Assembly (NCBI GenBank): GCA_018333715.1 | Contig: JAGXSW010000069.1 | Location: 1-36,571, forward strand | DNA: 36,571 bases | Reading direction: 5' to 3' | Origin: Syntrophaceae bacterium | Lineage (GTDB): Bacteria; Desulfobacterota; BSN033; UBA1163 | In this document: in pieces, positions 16,669-36,571 of the stretch | Layout of the letters: every line of letters starts with the position of its first letter | Position numbering within the stretch: the first letter of the stretch is position 1 | The notes under the pieces: generated by a model | Told to the model about the DNA's origin: nothing | The model's database searches: none | The model's input: the letters and a program-made list of their open reading frames with translations, nothing else | Made by a program: the position numbers and the translations under genes

Positions 16669-17700
16669 TTGGCGCAAAAAGATGTCTTAATCATCGGCGG
16701 AGGAATATCGGGAATGACAGTGGCAAAAGAGTTGGCGCAGTCAGGTGTTTCTGCCCTCCTGATTGAAAGAGATCCCTCCTTGGGGGGGCTTGCCGCCTCT
16801 TTCTGTTGTAAGGCTTCTGAATCCTGCAACAAATGTTTTGCCTGCGTGGCGGACAAGAGGGTTTTGGAGATCCGAAATGGGCCCTCCATTTCCATTCTCA
16901 CCCAAACCGAATTGACCGGCCTGAAAGGAGGGCCTGGAGCCTATAACGTCTCCTTGAAAAATGGAAAAGGGAGGATGGATATTGATGTCTCTGCCATCGT
17001 GATTGCGGCGGGAGTCGATCCTTTTGATGCCTCCCTGAAGGCCGAATACGGGTATGGCCGCTATAAAAATGTGATCACCGCCAGGGATCTGGACGAAATG
17101 CTCCGTCTTCGAGGAAAGCTTTTCTGTCCCTCGGACGGGAGACTTCCAAAAACTGTAGCCTTCTTCCAGTGCGTGGGAAGCCGGGATGAGTCCATCGGAA
17201 ACCTTTACTGTTCTCAGGTCTGCTGTGCCTATGCGCTCCGCCTGATCAAGGCGATCCGTTATCAATACCCCGAAACGAAGGCCGCCTTCCTCTATATGGA
17301 CATTCAGCCTGCCGGAGCCTCCTTTGACCAGTTTCTAAACTCCTGCCGGCAGGATAAAGGGATCCGCCTCATCCGGAGCCTTCCCTCAAAGGTCTATCAC
17401 TCTCCCCTCTCCGATGGTTTGAGGGTGAGATTCGTAGATCCTTTAAAGGGCGAGGTGGCGGAAGAGCCTTTCGATCTGATCGTCCTCTCCGTGGGATTGG
17501 TGTTGAGAAAAGATTCGAAATCACTCGCCAGGCTGTTTAATTTGAATTTCAATGAGGAGGGTTTTTTTGCGCCTCCGCCTGCCCAAACCGGCGTCTTCAT
17601 CACTGGGGCTTGCAGTGGACCGAAGGATATTGACCGTTCCATCATTCATGCAAAATCGATCGCCTGCACGGTTCAACAATATCTGAAAGGGAGGAGTTAA
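16669..17700 (+). CDS. hdrA: HdrA-like FAD/Fe-S protein, module 1 of a split tandem HdrA
   Basis: TTG start with SD gggag. LIIGGGISGMTVA, FFQCVGSRDE...CSQVCC, GACSGPKDI. ASFCCKASESCNKCFAC replaces the usual TFPTNDCSMCI motif. Confidence 0.8.
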   Translation: MAQKDVLIIGGGISGMTVAKELAQSGVSALLIERDPSLGGLAASFCCKASESCNKCFACVADKRVLEIRNGPSISILTQTELTGLKGGPGAYNVSLKNGKGRMDIDVSAIVIAAGVDPFDASLKAEYGYGRYKNVITARDLDEMLRLRGKLFCPSDGRLPKTVAFFQCVGSRDESIGNLYCSQVCCAYALRLIKAIRYQYPETKAAFLYMDIQPAGASFDQFLNSCRQDKGIRLIRSLPSKVYHSPLSDGLRVRFVDPLKGEVAEEPFDLIVLSVGLVLRKDSKSLARLFNLNFNEEGFFAPPPAQTGVFITGACSGPKDIDRSIIHAKSIACTVQQYLKGRS

Positions 17701-19416
17701 ATGGCTCGGATCGGTATATTCATCGATGGGATGGGAGGTTCGATCCCTGCCCCCTTTCGGGAAAAGATCGTTTCTGTCATCCGGGGACTCCCGGAGATTG
17801 CTTTCTCTGTTGAGGAAGAGAACCTCGCCTCTCCCGGGGCATTGCAAAGGATGGCTGAACATCTGAAGGCAGAGGAGGTGGATAGGGCGGTCATCCTCGG
17901 AGGAAGCCCCAAACTCTATGAGACTTCATTTAATAAATTTGGATATCCTGTTCTTCTCAATCCCTATCTCCTCACAGTGGCCAATCTGAAGGAACAGACC
18001 CTTCAGGCCGTGGCCAATGAAGAGGAGGCCGTTGAAAAAGCCCGAAAGATGATGATCAAAGCGATTCATCTGGCCTCTTCCTCCGGCCCCATTGAGTCCC
18101 GATCCCTTCCATTGACGCCCCAAACCCTGGTCATCGGAGGAGGAATTACAGGGATCGCCATCGCTCTTGCCCTGGCGCGATCAGGAATCCAGGTCTATCT
18201 CCTGGAGAAGGGGAAACATCTGGGCGGTAAGGCTTTGGAACTTCGCAGGTTTTATAACCGGCCCGAAGAAGTTCAGAAGTGGGTGGAGGAGAAGGTCTCC
18301 GAAATCAGCCGGAATTCCCGTATCACCGTGATCAGTGAAACAGAGCTGAAGCGGCTCGATGGCCATCTGGGCCGCTTCCAGGCAACAGTCCGGAAGGCGA
18401 ACGGAACGGAAGCGGTTCTCTCTCCCTCTGCCATCGTCGTCGCAACAGGATATGAAGTGGAACGAAACCGGAAGGGAATTTATGGCCACAGGAGTTTTAT
18501 CTCCTTTGCTGAAATGGAAACGCTTCTGGCCGAAAACGAGATCCCTTCTCTTCTCAGAAATGGGAAAAGGGTTGAATCGGTCGCCTTCCTTCTCGGTGAA
18601 GTCAATGGGGATGTGAAGATCGATTCGATCAATGCGGTCAAACAGAGCCTTCTCCTTCAGGAGGCATTCCAATGTCAGACAGTCATTCTCTGCAAGGACC
18701 TGAAGGTCTCTTCAGATGGAATGGAGCGGCTCTACCGGAGGGCGAGAGAGCGAGGCGCCCTCTTTATCAAATTTGAGGAGCCTCCGAAGCTCTCCATCGT
18801 CAACGGTCAGATTCAGGTCGATGTAAAGGACACGTCGGCCATTCGCAAGGAGGATGAATGGCCTCTCTCCATTCTTTCGGATCTCATTGTCCTGAGCGAT
18901 GCTCTCATCCCGAACCCTGAGACTGAAAATCTTTGCAGGATTCTCGGCCTCCATCGGGGAAACCGTGGATTTTTCATGGAGGATAATCCCCAGCTCCTCC
19001 GGGTGAGATCGAATCGAAGGGGAATCTTTGTGGCCGGGGGATGCCGGTTCCCGCAGGAAGTTTCGGAAACCCTGAACGAGGCAGGGGCAACGGCGCAGGA
19101 GGTGATCGCCCTTCTTTCAGGCGGGATTTATCCTTACGATCTTTCCGTCGCAGAGGTCGATCCCGAGAAATGCGCAGTCTGTCTCACCTGTCCCAGGCTC
19201 TGTCCTCATTCCGCGATCACTGTGGAGAAGTATGCGGAGAAGAATATCTATATCACTCCGGGAATCGGAGAAGGGGTGAAGTGGGGAGCCGCCAGAGTTG
19301 ACCCCGTTGCCTGTTATGGATGCGGAATCTGTGTCGGCGAATGCCCTGCAAAAGCGATCACGCTTCGCCATCAGCCCGATGAATTGATCTATGCCCAGAT
19401 GAACCTTAGTGATTGA
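17701..19416 (+). CDS. hdrA: HdrA-like FAD/Fe-S protein, module 2 of a split tandem HdrA
   Basis: ATG directly follows TAA (17698-17703). ARIGIFIDGMGGSI aligns with PRIGVFVCHCGINI of the fused paralogs. VIGGGITGIAIA. C-terminal CAVCLTCPRLCP / CYGCGICVGECP. Confidence 0.8.
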   Translation: MARIGIFIDGMGGSIPAPFREKIVSVIRGLPEIAFSVEEENLASPGALQRMAEHLKAEEVDRAVILGGSPKLYETSFNKFGYPVLLNPYLLTVANLKEQTLQAVANEEEAVEKARKMMIKAIHLASSSGPIESRSLPLTPQTLVIGGGITGIAIALALARSGIQVYLLEKGKHLGGKALELRRFYNRPEEVQKWVEEKVSEISRNSRITVISETELKRLDGHLGRFQATVRKANGTEAVLSPSAIVVATGYEVERNRKGIYGHRSFISFAEMETLLAENEIPSLLRNGKRVESVAFLLGEVNGDVKIDSINAVKQSLLLQEAFQCQTVILCKDLKVSSDGMERLYRRARERGALFIKFEEPPKLSIVNGQIQVDVKDTSAIRKEDEWPLSILSDLIVLSDALIPNPETENLCRILGLHRGNRGFFMEDNPQLLRVRSNRRGIFVAGGCRFPQEVSETLNEAGATAQEVIALLSGGIYPYDLSVAEVDPEKCAVCLTCPRLCPHSAITVEKYAEKNIYITPGIGEGVKWGAARVDPVACYGCGICVGECPAKAITLRHQPDELIYAQMNLSD

Positions 19417-19687: not shown

Positions 19688-20098
19688 ATGGTAAACTTTG
19701 AGCCTAAGATTGTGGCTTTTTGTTGTGACCAGTCCGGATATCCTGCCGCAGATATGGCGGGAGGTCTGGAACTCAACTTTCCCGGTAACGTTGAGTTCGT
19801 CCGGGTTCCTTGTGCGGGTCGAATCGAAACCCTCTATCTCCTGAAAGCGCTGGAAAGAGGAGCGGACGGGGTTCTGATCTTCGCCTGTTACGAAGAGAAC
19901 TGCCAATTCCTCAGGGGGAATCTCCGGGCAAAAAGCCGTCTCTCCTATGCCCATCGACTCCTGGAGAAAATCGGACTGGAGAAAGAACGAATCGAAATCT
20001 GCCATCTCGCCACCAATTGCGGCCCTAAGTTGGCGGAGACCCTTCACCGAAAATCGGAACAGTTGAAAAAACTGGGACCCAACCCGGCCAAAATATAA
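19688..20098 (+). CDS. mvhD: MvhD-like [2Fe-2S] electron-transfer subunit
   Basis: FEPKIVAFCCDQSGYPAADMAG...VRVPCAGRIE...GADGVLIFACYEENCQFLRGN. 136 aa. Confidence 0.9.
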   Translation: MVNFEPKIVAFCCDQSGYPAADMAGGLELNFPGNVEFVRVPCAGRIETLYLLKALERGADGVLIFACYEENCQFLRGNLRAKSRLSYAHRLLEKIGLEKERIEICHLATNCGPKLAETLHRKSEQLKKLGPNPAKI

Positions 20099-26800: not shown

Positions 26801-26872
26801 GATTTGTTTCGAATTGGTCCTAAGAGGACGCTTCGCCCGATATTCGGATTTCGGATTTAAGTGAGGGAAATA

Positions 26873-29800
26873 ATGGTTGACAAAATCGGAGCTGTGATGG
26901 TCGTCGGAGGCGGAATCGCCGGGATCCAGGCTTCCCTCGATCTTGCTGAATCTGGTTTCTATGTCTATCTTGTGGAATCCTCACCCGCCATTGGCGGAGT
27001 GATGGCCCAGCTCGACAAGACCTTCCCGACCAACGACTGCTCGATGTGTATTCTCTCCCCTAAATTGGTCGAGGCCGGCCGTCACCTCAACGTCATGCCT
27101 CTCACCTATTCCGAGGTAGCGGAGGTCACGGGAGAACCCGGAAACTTCGAAGTGACCGTGAGGAAGAAACCCCGTTTCGTTGATCCTTCCAAATGCACGG
27201 GATGCGGAGAATGTCCTGAGGCCTGCCCGGTCCATATCAAGAGTCAATTTGACGAAGCCCTGGTTGACCGAAGAGCCATCTACCGCCCCTATGCCCAGGC
27301 CTTCCCAAATATCTTTACGATTGAAAAAGGGGAACGGGCCCCATGCGGCCTCACCTGCCCTTCCGGCATAAATGTCCAGGGTTATATCGCTCTGATCAGC
27401 GCCGGAAAATATAAGGAAGCCTTCTCTTTAATATGGGAGAACCTGCCCCTTCCCGGGGTCCTGGGCCGGATATGTCCCCATCCCTGTGAAAAGGAGTGCA
27501 ATCGCAAGGATCTGGACGAACCCGTAGCGATCTGTGAACTGAAACGATTTGTGGCCGATCAGGTTCACCCCGTTAGAAAGGATGGGGCTTTAGATCCCAC
27601 CATTTCCAAGAAAATAATAGATCATTCTTACCCATCCCTATCCAAAGAGGTAGGGAATTCTAACGGGGTCAAGACAGGACTTCCTGTGCAGAAGGAAGAG
27701 GCAAAGGAAGAGAAAGTGGCTGTGGTTGGTTCCGGGCCCGCCGGGTTGACCGCTGCAGCCTATTTGGCTCTAAAAGGATATCCTGTGACGATCTTTGAAG
27801 CCCTTCCTGTAACGGGTGGAATGCTTTATACGGGAATTCCTTCCTACCGCCTTCCGAGAGACATTCTGGCCGAAGAGATCAAGGCCATTCAGTCCCTTGG
27901 CGTGGAGATCAAGACCAACTCCCCCATCGGTCCCAACCTTACCATCGATGACCTCTTCCGGCAGGGATACCGGTCTGTCTTTCTCGGTGTGGGCGCCCAT
28001 CAGGATCAGAAACTGAACATTCCCGGCGAGGACAATCCGAATGTCATCCCGGGCGTTGTCTTCTTACGAAAAGCCAATCTTAATGAGAAGGTTGCGGTGG
28101 GGAAAAGAACGGCTGTGATCGGCGGAGGAAATGTGGCGATCGATGCGGCCCGCTCGGCCCTGCGTCTCGGTTCAGAGGAAGTCACGGTCATCTATCGCCG
28201 CTCGCGGGACGAGATGCCTGCCTATGAAGAAGATGTAAAAGAGGCGGATGAAGAGGGAATCAAATTCCAGCTTCTCGCCGCTCCCACAGAGATCATTCTT
28301 AAAGATGGAAAGATCTCCTCTCTCCGATGCATCCGCATGGAATTGGGAGAGCCGGATTCATCCGGGCGAAGAAGGCCCATTCCGGTTCAGGGCTCGGACT
28401 TCTCTATCGAGGCCGATACGGTCATCCCTGCCATTGGCCAGATGCCTGATCTCTCTTTCTTAAAAGGGACGGAGATTGAGACCACTCCCCAGGGAACGAT
28501 CAAGACCGATCCGACCACCTTCCAGACATCGAAGCAAGGAGTTTTTTCCGGAGGCGATGCGGTCACCGGACCCTGGATTGCCATTGAGGCCGTGGCCGCA
28601 GGCAAAGAAGCAGCCATCTCGATTGACCGGCATCTCAGAGGCAAAGACCTTCAGGAGGGAAGAAAGAAACCCGATATCCAAAAAGCTCGATTTGAAGAAA
28701 TCTATGCCGATCAACCCAAAGCCCCAAGAGCGCGGATGGAGACGGTCCCCCTTGAGGAGAGAAGAAGAACCTTTTCAGAGGTCAAGAAGGGCTTCACTGA
28801 ACAAGAGGCAAAAAGGGAAGCCCTCCGATGCCTCAACTGCGGGCTCTGCTCCGAATGTCTCCAGTGTGCGGCCATTTGCAAAGCAGGAGCCATTAACCAT
28901 CAGATGGAAGAAGAGACCGTCCGTTTCAGCGTGGGTTCGATCATCCTGAGCCCCGGCTTTGATGAATATGATGCAAACCGGCTGGCCCCTTATGGATATG
29001 GCAGGCTTCCCAATGTGATCACGAGCATTCAATTCGAACGGATTCTCAGCGCCTCAGGCCCTTTTCAGGGAAATCTGCTGAGGCCTTCGGACCAAAAAGC
29101 GCCCAGGAAGGTCGCCTGGATCCAGTGCGCAGGCTCCAGGGACATGACTGGAAATTGCGGAAATGAATACTGCAGTTCGGTCTGCTGCATGTATGCCATC
29201 AAAGAGGCGGTGATCGCTAAAGAACACCACCACGAAGTCGAGCCCACGATCTTTTATATGGATATCCGCGCCCATGGAAAGGATTTCGACGCCTACTTCG
29301 AGAGGGCGAAGAAGGAATACGGCGTCCGGTTCATACGCTCGATGGTTTCCCGGGTGGCCGAAAGACCGAAGTCAAAAAATTTGATCATCTCCTATGTGGA
29401 TCCCGAAGGTAAACTAAAAGAGGAGGAATTTGATCTCGTCGTCCTTTCTGTGGGATTAACCCCATCTCAGGGAGCAAAAGAACTTGCCTCCAAACTCGGA
29501 TTGGCGCTCGATCCCTATGGGTTCTGCAAGACAGAGGAGTTTTCTCCCCTTCAGACCAGCCGGCCGGGAGTCTATGTCTGCGGCGCCTTTCAGGGACCCA
29601 AGGATATTCCGGAGACCGTTGCCCAGGCAAGCGGGGCAGTCGCCGCCGCCTCAAGCCTCCTCTCCGATGTCCGCGGCGCCTTGACAAAGAAGAAGGACTA
29701 TCCTGAAGAGTTTGATGTGAGCGGGCAGAAGCCGAGGATCGGCGTTTTTGTCTGCCACTGCGGGATTAACATCGGAGGCGTGGTCAATGTTCCGGAAGTT

Positions 29801-31417
29801 AAGGACTACGCCCGGACGCTCGAGGGCGTGGTCTTTGTGGAGGAAAACCTCTACACCTGTTCTCAGGACACCCAGGAGAAGATCAAGAAGGCTGTCGAGG
29901 AGAACCAGTTGAACAGGGTGGTCGTGGCTTCTTGTTCGCCGAGAACGCATGAGCCCATGTTTCAGGAGACGATTCGGGAGACCGGCCTCAATAAATATCT
30001 CTTTGAGATGACCAATATCCGGGATCAGTGTTCCTGGGTCCATATGCGCCAGCCTAAAGAGGCTACGGAAAAGGCAAAAGAACTTCTCCGGATGGCGGTG
30101 GCAAAATCCCATCTCCTTCAACCCTTGAAAGAACCTCTGGTGGAGGTCATCAAAAAAGGCCTGGTCATCGGAGGCGGGCTCTCCGGAATGAAGGCCGCCC
30201 TGGGCCTGGCTCAACAGGGATTTGATTGCGCGCTGGTGGAGAGAGAACCGGAACTGGGTGGAAATCTCCGGCATATCCATCACACCATTGAGGGAAATGA
30301 TCCACAGGAACTTCTCCGTAAGACGATCAAAGAAGTTCTTGAAAATCCTCGAATCCAGGTCTTTATAAAATCAGAACTCAAAAACCTCAATGGCTATATC
30401 GGAAATTTTAAATCGGTCATTTCGACGAACGGAACTGAAAAAGAGGTCGAACACGGCGTGGTCGTTGTTGCGGTTGGGGCCAAAGAAAACACGCCGAAGG
30501 AATACCTCTATGGCCAGGATCCGAGGGTGATCACGCAGAAAGAACTCGAAGAGAGGATCGCCCTTCACGGGGAAGAGGTGAGCGGAAGCCGCCATATCGT
30601 CATGATTCAATGCGTGGGATCCCGAATTCCGGAACATCCCAACTGCAGTCGAATCTGTTGCTCTGTCGCCGTGAAGAATGCGTTGAAGATCAAAGAGAAG
30701 AATCCCGATGCAAAGGTAACCGTCCTCTATCGCGACATCCGGACCTACGGTTTGATGGAGAAATATTATACCCGGGCAAGAAATCAGGGGATCGAATTCG
30801 TTCAGTACGATCTCGACTCAAAACCTGATCTGAGCATCGCAGAAGGAAACCTCCTGCTTAAAATCAAAGACAAAATCCTTGGAGAAGAAGTCAGCCTGCG
30901 GCCCGATCTCGTTGTGCTGGCGAGTTCCATTTTGCCTTATGAGAATGAAACTCTGGCGAAGATGCTCAAGGTGCCTTTGACTGCGGACGGATTCTTCCTC
31001 GAAGCTCATATGAAACTCCGGCCTGTCGATTTTGCGACGGATGGGATCTTCCTGGCTGGATTGGCCCATTTCCCAAAGAGCATCAGCGAATCCATTTCTC
31101 AGGCCGACGCTGCTGTGGCCCGCGCCACTGCCGCCGTGGCCAAAGGATATGTGAGCGTGCTTCCGACCATCTCCGAGGTGGATCAGACGCGGTGTGTGGG
31201 ATGCGGCCTCTGTGAATTGCTCTGCCCCTTTAATGCGATTCGTGTGGTGGAAACCGAAAAAGGAAGTAAGGCCGAGACGATTGCGGCCTCGTGTAAGGGA
31301 TGCGGGGTCTGTAGCGCCAGTTGCCCGCAGATGGCGGCTACGGTTTATCATTTCTCCGATAAACAGTTGATTGCCCAGATCGAGGCTCTTGGCCCTGCAA
31401 AGGAGAAGGCCGCTTGA
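26873..31417 (+). CDS. hdrL: HdrL-type giant tandem HdrA with inserted GltD/NfnB-like NAD(P)H:FAD module
   Basis: VVGGGIAGIQASL, TFPTNDCSMCI. Then a GltD-type Fe-S N-terminus (CGLTCPSG...RICPHPCEKEC), VAVVGSGPAGLTAA and AVIGGGNVAIDAA, before the HdrA body resumes (WIQCAGSRD, VCHCGINIGG, second GGGLSGM module, C-terminal 2x[4Fe-4S]). SD gaggg favours ATG 26873 over GTG 26861. Confidence 0.85.
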   Translation: MVDKIGAVMVVGGGIAGIQASLDLAESGFYVYLVESSPAIGGVMAQLDKTFPTNDCSMCILSPKLVEAGRHLNVMPLTYSEVAEVTGEPGNFEVTVRKKPRFVDPSKCTGCGECPEACPVHIKSQFDEALVDRRAIYRPYAQAFPNIFTIEKGERAPCGLTCPSGINVQGYIALISAGKYKEAFSLIWENLPLPGVLGRICPHPCEKECNRKDLDEPVAICELKRFVADQVHPVRKDGALDPTISKKIIDHSYPSLSKEVGNSNGVKTGLPVQKEEAKEEKVAVVGSGPAGLTAAAYLALKGYPVTIFEALPVTGGMLYTGIPSYRLPRDILAEEIKAIQSLGVEIKTNSPIGPNLTIDDLFRQGYRSVFLGVGAHQDQKLNIPGEDNPNVIPGVVFLRKANLNEKVAVGKRTAVIGGGNVAIDAARSALRLGSEEVTVIYRRSRDEMPAYEEDVKEADEEGIKFQLLAAPTEIILKDGKISSLRCIRMELGEPDSSGRRRPIPVQGSDFSIEADTVIPAIGQMPDLSFLKGTEIETTPQGTIKTDPTTFQTSKQGVFSGGDAVTGPWIAIEAVAAGKEAAISIDRHLRGKDLQEGRKKPDIQKARFEEIYADQPKAPRARMETVPLEERRRTFSEVKKGFTEQEAKREALRCLNCGLCSECLQCAAICKAGAINHQMEEETVRFSVGSIILSPGFDEYDANRLAPYGYGRLPNVITSIQFERILSASGPFQGNLLRPSDQKAPRKVAWIQCAGSRDMTGNCGNEYCSSVCCMYAIKEAVIAKEHHHEVEPTIFYMDIRAHGKDFDAYFERAKKEYGVRFIRSMVSRVAERPKSKNLIISYVDPEGKLKEEEFDLVVLSVGLTPSQGAKELASKLGLALDPYGFCKTEEFSPLQTSRPGVYVCGAFQGPKDIPETVAQASGAVAAASSLLSDVRGALTKKKDYPEEFDVSGQKPRIGVFVCHCGINIGGVVNVPEVKDYARTLEGVVFVEENLYTCSQDTQEKIKKAVEENQLNRVVVASCSPRTHEPMFQETIRETGLNKYLFEMTNIRDQCSWVHMRQPKEATEKAKELLRMAVAKSHLLQPLKEPLVEVIKKGLVIGGGLSGMKAALGLAQQGFDCALVEREPELGGNLRHIHHTIEGNDPQELLRKTIKEVLENPRIQVFIKSELKNLNGYIGNFKSVISTNGTEKEVEHGVVVVAVGAKENTPKEYLYGQDPRVITQKELEERIALHGEEVSGSRHIVMIQCVGSRIPEHPNCSRICCSVAVKNALKIKEKNPDAKVTVLYRDIRTYGLMEKYYTRARNQGIEFVQYDLDSKPDLSIAEGNLLLKIKDKILGEEVSLRPDLVVLASSILPYENETLAKMLKVPLTADGFFLEAHMKLRPVDFATDGIFLAGLAHFPKSISESISQADAAVARATAAVAKGYVSVLPTISEVDQTRCVGCGLCELLCPFNAIRVVETEKGSKAETIAASCKGCGVCSASCPQMAATVYHFSDKQLIAQIEALGPAKEKAA

Positions 31418-31781: not shown

Positions 31782-32537
31782 ATGACGTTCGAACCCAAAA
31801 TCCTATCATTTCTTTGTAACTGGTGCGCCTATGCCGGGGCGGACCTGGCAGGCATCTCCCGTTTTCAGTACCCTCCCAACAGCCGCGTGATCCGGGTGAT
31901 GTGTTCCGGAAGGGTTGACCCCTCTTTCGTCCCAAGGGCTTTTCTTGCAGGATATGATGGCGTCATGATCCTCGGATGCCATCCCGGAGACTGCCATTAC
32001 CTGACCGGAAATTATCAGGCTGAGAAAAAAATTATCCTCACCCGGAAATTACTGGAGATGGCTGGAATCGGATCGGATCGGCTTCTCCTCGACTGGGTCT
32101 CCGCCGGCGAGGGGGAGCGTTTTTCTCAGGTGATCCGCCAGTTCGTCGAGAAGATTCGAGGCCTGGGCCCCTTCCCTCTCGATCAGGAGATGAAAGGGAA
32201 ACTCCATGCGGTCAAAGCCTCTCTTGAAGGGGAAAAGATCCGCTGGATGGTGGGCAAGGGGCCTGAACTCATGGAAAAAGAGAACGTCTATCACGAACAA
32301 CTTCCCAAAGAGAGATTGGATGCGGCGATCGAGACGACCATTCGTGATGAGTTGATAAAAAATCGAATTATCGCATTGGTGGAATCAAAACCCTTGCCTG
32401 CCGCAGAGATCAGTCAAACATTAAACCTTAAATTGAATGAGACGCTCTCCTTCCTGGTCTCATTGATTGGCGAAGGAAAAATCGGTTTCGATCCCTCGGA
32501 GGAGGGAAAAATTCCAAAGTACATACGAAACGTCTAA
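31782..32537 (+). CDS. mvhD: MvhD-like subunit with ~110-aa C-terminal extension
   Basis: FEPKILSFLCNWCAYAGADLAG...VMCSGRVD...GCHPGDCHYLTGN. The extension ends in a helix-rich segment IIALVESKPLPAAEISQTLNLKLNETLSFLVSLIGEGKI. Confidence 0.85.
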   Translation: MTFEPKILSFLCNWCAYAGADLAGISRFQYPPNSRVIRVMCSGRVDPSFVPRAFLAGYDGVMILGCHPGDCHYLTGNYQAEKKIILTRKLLEMAGIGSDRLLLDWVSAGEGERFSQVIRQFVEKIRGLGPFPLDQEMKGKLHAVKASLEGEKIRWMVGKGPELMEKENVYHEQLPKERLDAAIETTIRDELIKNRIIALVESKPLPAAEISQTLNLKLNETLSFLVSLIGEGKIGFDPSEEGKIPKYIRNV

Positions 32538-32786: not shown

Positions 32787-35700
32787 ATGGAAGCTGCAAG
32801 AGACTTATCAAAATCTAAAATAGATCAACCCATCGGGGCTGTCCTGGTCATTGGGGGCGGCATCGGAGGGATGCAGGCATCTCTCGATCTCGCGGATTCG
32901 GGCTTTTATGTCTACATGGTCGACAACTCCCCCACCATCGGCGGAGTGATGGCCCAGCTCGACAAAACCTTCCCCACCAATGATTGCTCCATGTGCATCA
33001 TGTCCCCGAAACTGGTGGAGTGTGGGAGACATCTCAACATCCGGGTCATCACGAATGCCGATGTAGAAGGCATTGAGGGTGAACCCGGCCGGTTCAGTGT
33101 CACCCTGACGAGAAGGCCGAGATATATTCACCTGGACCGGTGCACCGGCTGCGGTGAATGCGCCAAACACTGCCCGGTGACCGCCATTGATGCCTACAAT
33201 GAAAAGTTGAGCAGGAGGGCCGCCATCTATATCAAATATGCTCAGGCCATTCCCAAAGTCTATCTGATCGACCGCGAGCAGTGTATCGGATGCGGACTCT
33301 GCGAAAGGGTCTGCCTTGCGAAGGCAGTCAATTACGAAGAGAGCCGGATTGTTGAGAAGATCGATGTGGGATCGGTTATCCTGTCGCCTGGCTATGAGGT
33401 CTTTGATGCCCATCTCAGGCCTGAATTCGGTTATGGAGTTTATCCCAATGTCGTCACGAGCATCGAGTTCGAAAGGCTATTGAGCGCCACCGGCCCGCAC
33501 AGGGGCCATCTCCTGAGGCCCTCTGACGGAACGGTCCCTGAACGGATCGCCTTCATCCAGTGTGTCGGCTCCAGAGACTCCAATTGCGGAAATGATTACT
33601 GCTCATCCATCTGCTGTATGTACGCCACCAAGGAGGCCATCATCGCCAGAGAGCACGTCCACTTTGTTAAGCCCACTATCTTCTACATGGATGTGAGAGC
33701 CTACGGCAAAGGGTTCGATGCCTACTATGAGAGGGCGAAGTCTGAATATGGGGTCCGTTTCATTAAATGCATGGTCTCCAGAATCAGGGAACAGTATAAA
33801 ACAAAGAACCTCCTTCTCACCTATCTCAACGAGGGAGGGAATCTCGTGGAGGAGGAGTTTGAATTGGTGGTTCTTTCTGTGGGTATGGTCCCCTCAAAAA
33901 CGACCATGGAGATGGCGAAACAGCTGGGCGTGGAGCTGGATGGGTATGGATACTGTAAAACCAGGCCCTTCGAACCCACCTCAACCTCAAAGCCCGGAAT
34001 CTATGTTTGCGGCGCCTTTGAGGCGCCCAAGGATATCCCTGAAACCGTCACTCAGGCAAGCGGCGCAGTGGCCGATGCCACCGGCGCCCTCTCTAATGCG
34101 AGGGGAACCCTGGCTACGAAGAAGGAGTATCCGATAGAAGTGGATGTGGCAAGCGAAGATCCCCGCATCGGCGTCTTTGTCTGCCACTGTGGAATCAATA
34201 TCGGAGGCTTTGTCAATGTCCCTGCAGTCAAGGAGTATGCCCGCACATTAAAGAATGTGGCCTATGTGGATGAAAACCTTTACACCTGCTCGACCGACAC
34301 CCAGGAGAAGATTAAGAATGCCGTCAACGAGCATCATCTGAACCGTGTCATTGTCGCCTCCTGCTCTCCGAGAACGCATGAGCCCATGTTCAGGGAAACC
34401 ATCCGCGATGCAGGATTGAATAAATACCTCTTTGAGATGGCCAATATCCGGGATCAATGCTCCTGGGTCCATATGTCTCAGAAGAAGGAAGCCACGGAAA
34501 AGGCAAAAAATCTTGTCCGGATGGCAGTCGCCAATGCCAGGTTGATTCAACCGCTGGGCGAGATCGCCCTCTCCGTTACCCAGAAAGGATTGGTCATCGG
34601 AGGCGGTGTTGCTGGAATGACCGCCGCCCTCAAACTGGCCGAACAGGGATATGAGGTCTTTCTTATCGAAAAAGAGGCTCAGTTAGGCGGGAATTTGAGG
34701 AATCTTCACTACACGCTTGAAGGTGAAGATATCCAGGCCTTTCTGAAGAATCTGATCAACCGGGTGACAGGTCATCCTTCCATCCAGGTCATTACGAACG
34801 CACTGGTCGTTGACTTCAGCGGTTCCAAAGGCAATTTCTCAACAGGAGTCATGGTCGCGCCTACGATGTATTACCGGAAGATCGAACACGGAGTCGCCAT
34901 CCTCGCCACCGGCGCCGATGAGTGGAAACCAAACGAATATCTCTATGGGGAGGATCCCCGCATCCTCACGCAAATAGAACTGGAAAACCGGATTGCGAAT
35001 CAGCCGGATGAAATGGCCAGGGCGAATCAGATCGTCATAATTCAGTGCGTGGGTTCAAGAAATGAAGAACGGCCTTATTGCAGCCGGACCTGCTGTGCCA
35101 CAGCCATTAAAAATGGGCTAAAAATGAAGGAACTAAATCCCGGGGCCAACATCACCATTCTTTACCGGGATATGCGGACTTACGGATTGATGGAATCGTA
35201 CTATGCAAAAGCGAGAGATGAAGGGATTCTCTTCATCAGATATGAACCTGAGAAAAAACCATTGGTCAGTAAAAACGGACAGGAACTGACCGTCTCCTTT
35301 CTTGATCGAATTCTGAATGAGGAGATGGAGATCAAACCTGATCTCCTCATTCTCTCTTCGGCAACCATTTCAAGGGAGAATGAGGAGTTGGCAACCATGC
35401 TGAAGGTCCCTCGAACAGCAGAGGGATTCTTCCTCGAAGCCCATATGAAGTTAAGGCCGGTCGATTTTGCAACCGATGGCCTCTACCTGGCAGGGTCAGG
35501 ACATGGTCCGAAATTGATAAGCGAAAGCATCTCTCAGGCAAGCGCAACAGTCTCCCGGGCCTGCACCATTCTTTCGAAGGAAAAGATATTAGTCGGCGGC
35601 GTGGCGGCGATGGTGGAGGGGGAGCGGTGTGCGGCCTGTTTGACCTGTGTGAGGGTCTGTCCCTACAATGTGCCGGTGATCAATGCCAAGGGCGAGGCGG

Positions 35701-35843
35701 AGATTGATCTGGCCAAATGCAAGGGGTGCGGCAGCTGTGCAGCAGAATGTCCGGCCAGAGCCATAGAGCTGATGCACTTCAGAGATGGTCAGCTCTGGGC
35801 CAAGAGCCAGGCATTGATCTACAGCATAGAGCAGAGCGCATAG
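32787..35843 (+). CDS. hdrA: tandem (double-module) HdrA-like flavoprotein
   Basis: Same architecture as hdrL without the GltD-like insertion. Clearly paralogous; by eye roughly 80% identical in the VCHCGINIGG...RDQCSWVHM block. 1018 aa. Confidence 0.85.
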   Translation: MEAARDLSKSKIDQPIGAVLVIGGGIGGMQASLDLADSGFYVYMVDNSPTIGGVMAQLDKTFPTNDCSMCIMSPKLVECGRHLNIRVITNADVEGIEGEPGRFSVTLTRRPRYIHLDRCTGCGECAKHCPVTAIDAYNEKLSRRAAIYIKYAQAIPKVYLIDREQCIGCGLCERVCLAKAVNYEESRIVEKIDVGSVILSPGYEVFDAHLRPEFGYGVYPNVVTSIEFERLLSATGPHRGHLLRPSDGTVPERIAFIQCVGSRDSNCGNDYCSSICCMYATKEAIIAREHVHFVKPTIFYMDVRAYGKGFDAYYERAKSEYGVRFIKCMVSRIREQYKTKNLLLTYLNEGGNLVEEEFELVVLSVGMVPSKTTMEMAKQLGVELDGYGYCKTRPFEPTSTSKPGIYVCGAFEAPKDIPETVTQASGAVADATGALSNARGTLATKKEYPIEVDVASEDPRIGVFVCHCGINIGGFVNVPAVKEYARTLKNVAYVDENLYTCSTDTQEKIKNAVNEHHLNRVIVASCSPRTHEPMFRETIRDAGLNKYLFEMANIRDQCSWVHMSQKKEATEKAKNLVRMAVANARLIQPLGEIALSVTQKGLVIGGGVAGMTAALKLAEQGYEVFLIEKEAQLGGNLRNLHYTLEGEDIQAFLKNLINRVTGHPSIQVITNALVVDFSGSKGNFSTGVMVAPTMYYRKIEHGVAILATGADEWKPNEYLYGEDPRILTQIELENRIANQPDEMARANQIVIIQCVGSRNEERPYCSRTCCATAIKNGLKMKELNPGANITILYRDMRTYGLMESYYAKARDEGILFIRYEPEKKPLVSKNGQELTVSFLDRILNEEMEIKPDLLILSSATISRENEELATMLKVPRTAEGFFLEAHMKLRPVDFATDGLYLAGSGHGPKLISESISQASATVSRACTILSKEKILVGGVAAMVEGERCAACLTCVRVCPYNVPVINAKGEAEIDLAKCKGCGSCAAECPARAIELMHFRDGQLWAKSQALIYSIEQSA

Positions 35844-35845
35844 GA

Positions 35846-35922
35846 GAAATTAGGGACACTTCCCAATTTTTCGTATTAAGATAATTTTCCAATGATAAAA
35901 ATTGGGAAGTGTCCCTAATTTC
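35846..35922. repeat. perfect 26-bp inverted repeat with 25-nt spacer
   Basis: gaaattagggacacttcccaattttt (35846-35871) and aaaaattgggaagtgtccctaatttc (35897-35922) are exact reverse complements. Confidence 0.95.
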
Positions 35923-35942
35923 GCGAACTAACAGGAGAGGCG

Positions 35943-36419
35943 ATGGAAGCAATTCAGGAGACACGAGGCGCGAGTCACAAATCACCAGTCACCCGGTTTG
36001 AGCCTGAGATACTGGCTTACTGTTGTGAGCATTGAGCTTATAGCGCCGCGGACCTGGCAGGTTCGATGAGGCTATCGTATCCGACCAACGTGAAGATCGT
36101 GAAAGTTCCCTGTACTGGCAGGGTGGATATCCTGTTGATTCTCAAAGCCTTTGAATCGGGGGTGGACGGGGTCTATCTGGCAGGGTGTCTGGAGGGGGAG
36201 TGTCATTTCTTGAGGGGAAATCTCATGGCCAAAAAGAGGGTTCAGTATGTGAAGACACTATTGGACGAGGTGGGATTGGGTTCTGGCCGTGTGGAGATGG
36301 TCAACATGAGCTCAGCCCAGGGCCAGCGATTTGCAGAGGTGGCCAGAGAGATGACGGAGAAGATTCGGGTGTTAGGACCAAGCCCTGTCAAAAGATCGAA
36401 AGTCGAAGGTAGAAAGTAG
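35943..36419 (+). CDS. mvhD: MvhD-like subunit with in-frame TGA (36033-36035) read as selenocysteine
   Basis: SD aggagagg (35933-35940). The frame is continuous with the ORF-track ORF 36066-36419. The translation ...FEPEILAYCCEH-U-AYSAADLAGS aligns with CNWCAYAGADLAG of the 31782 paralog. Confidence 0.75.
36040..36075 (+). promoter_or_regulatory. candidate bacterial SECIS hairpin
   Basis: Lower stem atagc (36040-36044) / gctat (36071-36075). Upper stem cggacc (36049-36054) / ggttcg (36060-36065) with loop UGGCA. The upper stem starts 13 nt after UGA. Confidence 0.5.
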
Positions 36420-36479
36420 AGAGTGGAGAGTTAGATTCTTAACTACTTTCTACTTTCTACTTTCCACATTCCACCTTCG
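36404..36479. repeat. AGTAG/CTACT-type word hairpin overlapping the mvhD stop
   Basis: Outer pair cgaaggt (36404-36410) / accttcg (36473-36479). Left arm gtagaaagtagagagtggagag, right arm ctactttctactttctactttccac. Confidence 0.7.
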
Positions 36480-36494: not shown

Positions 36495-36571
36495 ATGATT
36501 GTAGCAAACCGTAAGCCATTGGAAGAGATACTCACGATGCTCAAACCCTACAAAAAGGTCTTGCTTCTGGG
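36495..36571 (+). CDS. metV: second MetV-like gene, 5' fragment (runs off window)
   Basis: MIVANRKPLEEILTMLKPYKKVLLL parallels MIKAEQKPLEEILLYLKSYDRILLSG of metV at 20255. SD ggagg. Confidence 0.6.
   Translation, partial: MIVANRKPLEEILTMLKPYKKVLLL

Follow-up and report, generated by a model that had tools for sequence, protein, structure and literature searches.

A single in-frame TGA at positions 36033–36035 raises the question of whether the DNA analyzed here, a stretch of 36,571 nucleotides from a Syntrophaceae bacterium that we call the window, encodes a selenoprotein whose N-terminus has been lost to gene prediction. Selenocysteine (Sec)-containing MvhD and VhuD proteins, with the domain PF02662 and a CxxU motif, are a catalogued prokaryotic selenoprotein family, and few bacterial groups are as rich in selenoproteins as Thermodesulfobacteriota. 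An earlier note, made from the letters of this DNA, had proposed that a Sec-type MvhD lies hidden behind the TGA and had mentioned such proteins in Methanococcales and sulfate reducers. The literature confirms that they occur there, and the proposal is supported by conservation of the TGA, a hairpin linked to it, the fit of that hairpin to a bacterial Sec insertion sequence (SECIS), and the ordinary use of TGA as a stop elsewhere in the window. We consider it highly probable, judging from the comparisons below, that positions 35943–36419 encode one 158-residue MvhD-type [2Fe-2S] adaptor selenoprotein, with UGA read as Sec by means of the downstream hairpin.

A single TGA interrupts an MvhD reading frame

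Read directly from the sequence, the frame opened by ATG 35943–35945 runs to TAG 36417–36419 on the forward strand, and TGA 36033–36035 is its sole interruption. The full coding sequence (35943–36419) translates as 158 codons, of which codon 31 would specify Sec within the motif C28-E-H-U31. A Shine-Dalgarno-like aggagagg (35933–35940) places its GGAG core 5 nt 5′ of the ATG; start codon, ribosome-binding site, and lone TGA are thus all as the earlier note described them. The program-made ORF list does begin the gene at ATG 36066, as had also been said, and this codon (36066–36068) encodes Met42, an internal residue that ORF callers treat as the first.

Translation across the TGA gives ...RFEPEILAYCCEH[TGA]AYSAADLAGSMRL... 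With Cys in place of the stop, this read-through protein matches Pfam PF02662 (FlpD/MvhD, methyl-viologen-reducing hydrogenase δ subunit) over positions 1–123 of 123 (E = 7e-48), and its score of 162.1 bits, against a curated cutoff of 22.3, places it within the family. It also matches six solved MvhD/VhuD chains in the PDB, with E values from 1e-34 to 4e-39. The five conserved Cys/Sec columns of PF02662 (C-x-x-C/U, P-C-x-G, G-C, and x-x-x-x-C-H) are all filled, by C28, U31, C57, C82, and C87. An ORF begun at Met42 lacks approximately the first 19 positions of the profile, including two of the conserved Cys columns. The N-terminus MEAVQE... is common to the window protein and the Cys-type homologs P0018, P0064, and P0070, and the equivalent of Met42 lies internally in full-length homologs (…AADLAGSMRL…).

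Two further mvhD genes in the window, both on the forward strand, align in register with this one. At the column of TGA 36033, the paralog at 31782–32537 has TGC (31824) and encodes a 251-aa protein with a C-terminal extension, and the paralog at 19688–20098, which encodes 136 aa and belongs to a second hdrA-mvhD-metV-metF cluster, has TCC for Ser (19733). The alignment therefore bears out the claim that three paralogs carry Cys, Ser, and Sec at one position. The Ser-type paralog retains the other four conserved Cys residues.

The TGA occupies a cysteine column in relatives

We fetched DNA for 80 species-representative genomes (Genome Taxonomy Database) carrying the closest homolog; their labels include Thermodesulfobacteriota/'Deltaproteobacteria', Syntrophales, Syntrophorhabdales, Syntrophobacterales, and Acidobacteriota. 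At the column of the window TGA, 76 of the 80 loci have TGA and three have TGC; one locus had no match to the motif by which the column was found. As a control set, metagenome loci were retrieved by querying with aligned Cys-type proteins, which yielded 37 further TGA-type genes and 26 Cys-type genes that encode the same peptide, AADLAG(S/T)M. Pooling and de-duplicating the genome and metagenome genes left 111 TGA-type genes, 28 Cys-type orthologs, and 14 paralog copies.

The sequence ahead of the TGA behaves as protein-coding DNA. Across 77 distinct genome sequences, the 12 codons 5′ of the TGA are kept at the amino-acid level as FEPxI(L/V)A(F/Y)CC, with F, E, P, A, C, and C invariant, and the same codons vary synonymously (four Pro codons, four Ala codons, and two Cys codons). 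Because the peptide is invariant while its codons vary, this segment must be translated in the frame of the TGA. The 28 Cys-type orthologs, some 70 full-length database proteins, and MvhD chains from the PDB have Cys where the TGA stands; one archaeal VhuD chain, 9sfi_K, shows X (Sec) there. The alignment of orthologs, with TGA in 76 of 80 genomes, agrees with the claim that the TGA falls on a Cys/Sec column of MvhD. A neighbor-joining tree indicates at least about six independent switches between Sec and Cys.

Database homologs divide by identity to the window protein. Those at 64–78% identity are full length (about 140–180 aa) and read ...CCxxC-AYxAADLAGSMRL..., and every entry at 87–96% identity starts MRL[SN]YP, at the Met equivalent to 36066. 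The prediction that standard ORF callers miss this N-terminus holds for all database proteins at 87% identity or more.

A hairpin built from frozen synonymous sites follows the TGA

A short way downstream of the TGA, codon choice is almost fixed. Codons +5 to +10 (GCG GAC CTG GCA GGT TCG) show almost no synonymous change among the 77 distinct genome sequences: GCG, GAC, CTG, and GGT each occur in 77 of 77, GCA in 72 of 77 (the rest being GCG), and TCG in 74 of 77. The Ala codon at +4, in contrast, is free, with GCG in 26, GCT in 26, GCA in 18, and GCC in seven. These codons, which specify A-D-L-A-G-S, hold a putative SECIS core on the forward strand (36049–36065), the 17-nt hairpin CGGACCU-GGC-AGGUUCG with seven base pairs and the loop GGC. 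It starts 13 nt after the UGA, with 20 nt between UGA and loop. Within the hairpin, each synonymous base forms a Watson-Crick pair with a first- or second-position base that does not vary, and the first loop base, G, is a synonymous position too.

The motif GCGGACCTGGC[AG]GGTTC is present in all 111 distinct TGA-type genes and in none of the 28 Cys-type orthologs encoding the same peptide (Fisher p = 5.6e-30, the sequences being related and not independent). It is likewise missing from all 14 paralog copies; in the Cys-type 251-aa paralog, the A-D-L-A-G codons vary among relatives and form no hairpin. On both strands of 1.55 Mb of fetched DNA, 120 of 120 copies of the motif sit exactly 13 nt 3′ of a TGA. 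The fixed 7-bp hairpin has a mean energy of −6.7 kcal/mol in TGA-type genes versus +2.7 kcal/mol in Cys-type genes, and each Cys lineage in the neighbor-joining tree carries two to eight mismatches to the hairpin core. Substitutions seen in the hairpin are an A-to-G change giving U·G (five sequences) and loss of the terminal C-G pair (13 sequences).

The case for the hairpin rests on this fixed codon choice and on how Cys-type genes differ from it. Since the hairpin is invariant, there was no compensatory covariation when we looked for it among the aligned TGA-type genes. Single-sequence folding energies did not differ significantly from those of shuffled sequences (z = −0.53 and −0.38), so that energy by itself makes no case for the hairpin. 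Searches of Rfam with the whole window at gathering thresholds, and with positions 35990–36120 at E up to 10, returned no SECIS or other family, which is unsurprising because bacterial SECIS elements are poorly covered by sequence families. The published bacterial SECIS model calls for a loop of 3–9 nt, a stem of 4–16 bp, a G in the first two loop positions, a UGA-to-loop distance of 16–37 nt, and a minimum free energy of −7.5 kcal/mol or lower. The window element has the loop GGC, a stem of 7 bp, a distance of 20 nt, and a local fold of −15.4 to −15.9 kcal/mol (the 17-mer alone reaches −6.9).

The earlier note had drawn a two-tier hairpin (36040–36075, forward strand) beginning 13 nt after the UGA, two figures that do not agree with each other. 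This structure folds in the window sequence, and its upper tier, 36049–36065, is the conserved element and has the 13-nt spacing; the lower tier (36040–36044 with 36071–36075) begins 4 nt after the UGA and is not conserved. RNAalifold keeps the upper hairpin as the sole structure and no lower stem, and alignment column 18, like the outer columns, is free to vary; we rejected the lower tier as a conserved part, and it appears specific to the source lineage. A lower helix that includes the UGA itself (alignment columns 4–10 with 40–46 in 111 sequences) was also discarded, since its 75.6% pairing was not above shuffle controls and showed no real covariation. The broader suggestion, of SECIS-like spacing and a hairpin retained in relatives, is upheld by the fit to the model and by the 111 of 111 TGA-type genes.

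Other MvhD orthologs have a second Sec site, whose hairpin differs from this one but shares its apical CCUGGNAGG, and either of two MvhD columns can hold Sec.

Selenocysteine accounts best for the UGA

What the comparisons establish is that UGA, hairpin, and surrounding gene order are conserved. By analogy with the established bacterial mechanism, a ribosome arriving at UGA 36033–36035 would meet an mRNA hairpin (36049–36065) that recruits SelB·GTP·Sec-tRNASec, and Sec would be inserted at the UGA in place of termination. Recruitment of SelB by the hairpin is what we infer from this mechanism.

Genes for the Sec machinery were sought as well: selA, selB, selC, and selD do not occur in the window or in the approximately 1.5 Mb of fetched flanks, and ARAGORN found no tRNA-Sec in the window or in 82 loci. 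When E. coli SelA, SelB, and SelD were compared with all loci by tblastn, the only matches fell in the GTPase domain of SelB, and we set them aside as TypA/BipA. Relatives carry other signs of Sec decoding. Two loci (L022 and L076) contain HdrA-type genes with a TGA on their CxxC/U site and a conserved hairpin of their own. A third locus, L042, which has the same TGA-type mvhD, encodes a selC*-type tRNA (63.7 bits to the Rfam tRNA-Sec model, discriminator U73, anticodon GCA) adjoining YedE- and YedF-like genes, a selenium-linked locus. We considered this long tRNA as a tRNASec(UCA) and rejected it in favor of a selC*-type tRNACys(GCA). The Sec genes at L022 and L076, together with the L042 locus, lend indirect support to the view that the lineages of these relatives decode Sec.

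The selC* tRNA also bears on a different outcome, in which the UGA is read as Cys, always or at low selenium, through a selC* tRNACys(UCA) and a SelB paralog. Such a tRNACys(UCA) is able to insert Cys at an opal Sec codon, and selB* lies next to selC* in some Syntrophobacterales and Desulfobacterales (Mukai et al.; PMC5389517); the selC*-type tRNA at L042 is a further point in favor. The anticodon of that tRNA, however, is GCA and not UCA, and it would not read UGA. All genomes that carry selC* have a complete Sec apparatus (PMC5389517), and neither selC* nor selB* was seen in the window. UGA and SECIS are kept together in more than 100 lineages even though the one-base change to UGC or UGU has been taken at least about six times. 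Because this switch to Cys is freely available and yet UGA and SECIS persist, Sec itself appears to be selected, and we give a Cys reading only a slim chance. A scheme of dual use, in which the codon would specify Sec when selenium is present and Cys by way of the selC* tRNACys and a SelB paralog when it is not, strikes us as improbable too, with a small chance of being right. Were it true, the apical CCUGGNAGG common to the two alternative MvhD Sec sites would be a docking signal for both factors.

Insertion of Sec must also be weighed against the annotation found everywhere in databases, according to which the gene starts at Met 36066 and the TGA either ends a separate upstream ORF of 30 codons or lies in a stretch that is not translated. 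ORF callers place the start there without exception, and ATG 36066 is invariant. The protein so defined, though, would lack the first β-strand as well as two of the five conserved PF02662 Cys columns, and the equivalent Met is internal in all full-length homologs. No Shine-Dalgarno sequence stands ahead of 36066, where the hairpin covers the region. In addition, the 30 upstream codons are kept as protein, with synonymous change free in the 111 sequences, and match the N-termini of Cys-type proteins. We regard a start at Met 36066 as very unlikely.

A pseudogene, or a sequencing or assembly error that makes the TGA a nonsense mutation, is next to impossible: a single in-frame stop within a domain would look alike in one sequence, but the identical gene with its TGA is present in four independent assemblies and the TGA recurs in 111 distinct orthologs, with no frameshifts, with purifying selection on both flanks, and in a conserved operon context. 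Equally implausible is a genome-wide reassignment of TGA to Trp or Gly (genetic codes 4 or 25), which could draw on the W at this column in database entry P0076; the DNA beneath that entry has TGA, the W is an artifact of the genetic code used by the caller, and homologs have Cys at the column, never Trp or Gly. TGA is the stop codon of nine of the 27 window genes, three of which have a second stop directly after it (TGA-TAG once and TGA-TGA twice). All TGA-ended genes and upstream in-frame TGAs in the window were examined for other read-through or selenoprotein candidates, and none was credible. TGA has not been reassigned, since it ends these nine genes and no other gene in the window needs read-through.

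Gene neighborhood and predicted role of Sec31

The whole window is a Wood-Ljungdahl/CODH-ACS cluster, with two hdrA-mvhD-metV-metF modules, hdrB/C-like genes, and an HdrL-like fusion of 1518 aa. Directly upstream of the TGA-containing gene, and ending 100 nt 5′ of it, lies an hdrA-type gene (32787–35843, forward strand), whose 1018-aa product has two flavin/NAD-binding domains and ferredoxin-like Fe-S domains, with Pfam and NCBIfam HdrA matches. A PF02662 protein would be expected beside, or fused with, an HdrA-type flavoprotein, and the window mvhD has one adjacent; this HdrA is the expected redox partner. Downstream, on the same strand, metV (DUF5981) begins at 36495 and is cut by the window end at 36571 (translation MIVANRKPLEEIL...). 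A contig resembling the source, L081, has the order hdrA (1018 aa), mvhD, metV, metF, and an HdrC-HdrB fusion. This arrangement recurs in relatives: an HdrA-like gene stands directly upstream in 67 of the 69 TGA-type loci with enough sequence, and the gene is followed by metV and metF in 62 of 63.

MvhD is described in the literature as a [2Fe-2S] adaptor that feeds electrons to the flavin of HdrA. Its neighbors, a fused HdrA on the upstream side and MetV, MetF, and the HdrC-HdrB fusion on the downstream side, suggest that the window MvhD would be the subunit that relays electrons in an Hdr-coupled methylenetetrahydrofolate reductase encoded in a Wood-Ljungdahl gene cluster.

In such a protein, Sec31 would take the place of the fifth conserved Cys, beside the [2Fe-2S] cluster. 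The earlier note had put the TGA on a cluster-ligand Cys of the CxxC motif, and this label is doubtful. Sec31 is most likely a fifth, non-ligand, redox-active residue, because PF02662 has five conserved Cys columns where four ligands are needed, because the Ser-type paralog keeps the other four Cys residues, and because a preprint statement on Sec19 of BamF, described below, points the same way. Sec31 would probably serve as a redox-active selenol, possibly by way of a selenenylsulfide, for which Cys82 would be the evident partner, and so aid electron transfer between the cluster and the HdrA flavin.

Comparison with known adaptors and SECIS elements

The closest parallel in archaea is VhuD, the δ subunit of the F420-non-reducing hydrogenase of Methanococcales (PDB 9sfi_K / 9t1s). 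It shares the PF02662 fold with the window protein (E = 6e-39 over 131 residues), the Sec at the same column (…C-x-x-U-G/A-Y-x-A-A-D-L-A-G), and the role of a [2Fe-2S] adaptor toward HdrA. The two differ in several respects. Besides this Sec, the Methanococcus maripaludis structure shows another at the AG-C column, which in the window protein is filled by Cys82; the SECIS of archaea is in the 3′-UTR, whereas that of the window gene is embedded in the coding sequence, the usual bacterial arrangement; and VhuD partners with a [NiFeSe] hydrogenase or Fdh rather than with MetFV. Against the NCBIfam VhuD model NF045873, the window protein scores 159.5 bits where the cutoff is 215, and it is a relative of archaeal VhuD outside that narrow family.

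Among bacteria, Desulfobacterium autotrophicum HRM2 has four Sec mvhD genes (MvhD1/2/3/5), each next to hdrA or hdrL. These resemble the window gene, by description, in belonging to Thermodesulfobacteriota, in their in-frame UGA, and in following hdrA/hdrL; their neighbors include dsr, fdh, and mvhAG loci, as opposed to metVF at the window gene. In Geobacter metallireducens, BamF of the class II benzoyl-CoA reductase is an MvhD-like [2Fe-2S] adaptor docked to BamE, a fused double HdrA. A preprint describes Sec19 of BamF as corresponding to a Cys that is near the cluster and forms a regulatory disulfide in methanogen MvhD. By position, not by alignment, this residue would occupy the column of Sec31, since a Sec at residue 19 only fits the N-terminal CxxU site. 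In length BamF resembles the Cys-type 251-aa paralog in the window and not the Sec gene, and it serves the reduction of aromatic rings, while the context of the window MvhD is methylene-THF reduction.

The gene set hdrA, mvhD, metV, metF, and hdrCB, in a Wood-Ljungdahl context, is also that of Moorella thermoacetica, whose MetFV-HdrABC-MvhD methylenetetrahydrofolate reductase (Mock et al. 2014) is summarized in PMC6085437, which makes no mention of Sec in the complex. These genes, metF, metV, mvhD, hdrA, and hdrB/C, are encoded together in the window and L081 combined, although HdrA is of the 1018-aa fused form and HdrB and HdrC are fused at the window-type locus, unlike in Moorella. We take the Moorella MvhD to be of the Cys type.

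In common with the E. coli fdhF-type SECIS and the bSECISearch consensus, the hairpin lies in coding sequence shortly after the UGA and has a small apical loop that opens with G-G, on an upper stem of 7 bp. It differs from the fdhF-type element in having no sequence similarity to it and no bulged U, and its loop is 3 nt (5 nt if the closing U-A pair opens). A size of 17 nt and a spacer of 11–13 nt are reminiscent of the minimal fdhF element.

Consequences for annotation and for the MvhD family

Sec-containing MvhD proteins have already been documented in D. autotrophicum, as BamF in Geobacter, and in Methanococcales, and the window gene is a further member. A selenoprotein of this kind is to be expected in a group of selenoprotein-rich anaerobes, and the practical value of the finding is in annotation. 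All close database relatives are stored as N-terminally truncated ORFs of about 117 residues that lack two conserved Cys/Sec columns, and one cluster of such truncated entries has 405 member sequences. Because relatives are stored in this form, reconstructions of the Wood-Ljungdahl and Hdr-MetFV pathways in Syntrophales-like and Acidobacteriota metagenome-assembled genomes carry a broken subunit. The 17-nt hairpin, written in wobble positions and matched perfectly to the TGA state, is an unusually clean natural SECIS signature and could flag such genes automatically. For the family, the fact that Sec can stand at either of two MvhD columns bears on how [2Fe-2S] adaptors hand over electrons to a bifurcating flavin.

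Misannotation of Sec-type MvhD and the accompanying MvhD forms

Sec-type members of the MvhD family are subject to a systematic annotation error in protein databases. Among publicly deposited proteins, every close homologue (P0002, P0010, P0023, and others) starts at the internal methionine (Met42, 36066 in the window), and a single cluster of proteins cut at this residue has 405 members. For one relative (protein P0076, DNA locus L167), the TGA is instead rendered as W in the database protein.

Two further forms of this [2Fe-2S] adaptor are encoded in the window. An MvhD of 251 aa (31782-32537), bearing a C-terminal extension of ~120 residues, follows an HdrA/GltD-like fusion of the "HdrL" type (26861-31417, 1518 aa); this order resembles HdrL-MvhD of D. 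autotrophicum, and the pair also recalls the elongated BamF adaptor of Geobacter. The third paralogue (19688-20098) has Ser (TCC, 19733-35) at the column occupied by Cys or Sec in the others and retains the other four conserved Cys residues. Its gene is part of a second module, hdrA(split)-mvhD-metV-metF, in which HdrA is encoded by two abutting ORFs, the first (16669-17700) ending in TAA and the next beginning with ATG at 17701.

Inverted repeats at the two ends of Sec-type mvhD

Between hdrA and mvhD lies a perfect inverted repeat with 26 bp arms and a 25-nt spacer (35846-35922), ending 10 nt upstream of the mvhD Shine-Dalgarno sequence. Its arms are kept in a different species (locus L001). 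In L083, the spacer is the exact reverse complement of that in the window, and in L001 it is also flipped, with a few substitutions; the loop thus exists in both orientations among strains. The element may act as an RNA hairpin, as a processing site, or as a hotspot for recombination. A second, imperfect repeat (36392-36479; 33-35 nt, 80-82% complementary) spans the final mvhD codons and stop and reaches toward metV, a region in which MvhD orthologues differ in C-terminal tail length.

A selC*-type tRNA and probable Sec-type HdrA in relatives

Approximately 6 kb downstream of Sec-type mvhD in locus L042 is a tRNA of ~92-99 nt (L042:16233-16324), adjoining YedE-like (Sulf_transp) and YedF-like (Se_S_carrier) genes. 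Despite matching the Rfam tRNA-Sec model at 63.7 bits, it has anticodon GCA and discriminator U73, features that place it among the selC*-type tRNACys molecules reported by Mukai et al.

In HdrA-type genes of two relatives (L022:17720 and L076:17351), the motif FPTNDCS(M/I)C has TGA in place of its second Cys, with an identical downstream hairpin, CUGGUCG-AGGU-CGGCCGG. Both window HdrA genes encode Cys at this column (27047 and 32994), and neither has a hairpin of this type.

A second Sec column in MvhD

In eight MvhD orthologues (L085:897, L088:1702, L092:1702, L099:1702, L102:1702, L126:1696, L152:1690, and L123:1693), TGA stands at another column, AG-[U]-LEGECHF, whose window counterpart is Cys82 (codon 36186-36188). 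The second Sec of archaeal VhuD occupies the matching column. Six of the eight share a site-2 hairpin, AUUUCCU-GGA-AGGAAAU, from which the folds at L123 and L126 differ. Apical CCUGGNAGG occurs in both this hairpin and the predicted site-1 SECIS (36049-36065), hinting at a common SelB recognition motif and suggesting that the two Sec-bearing columns of MvhD are functionally coupled. Seven of these orthologues combine Cys at site 1 (36033-36035 in the window) with Sec at site 2, and L123 alone has Sec at both.
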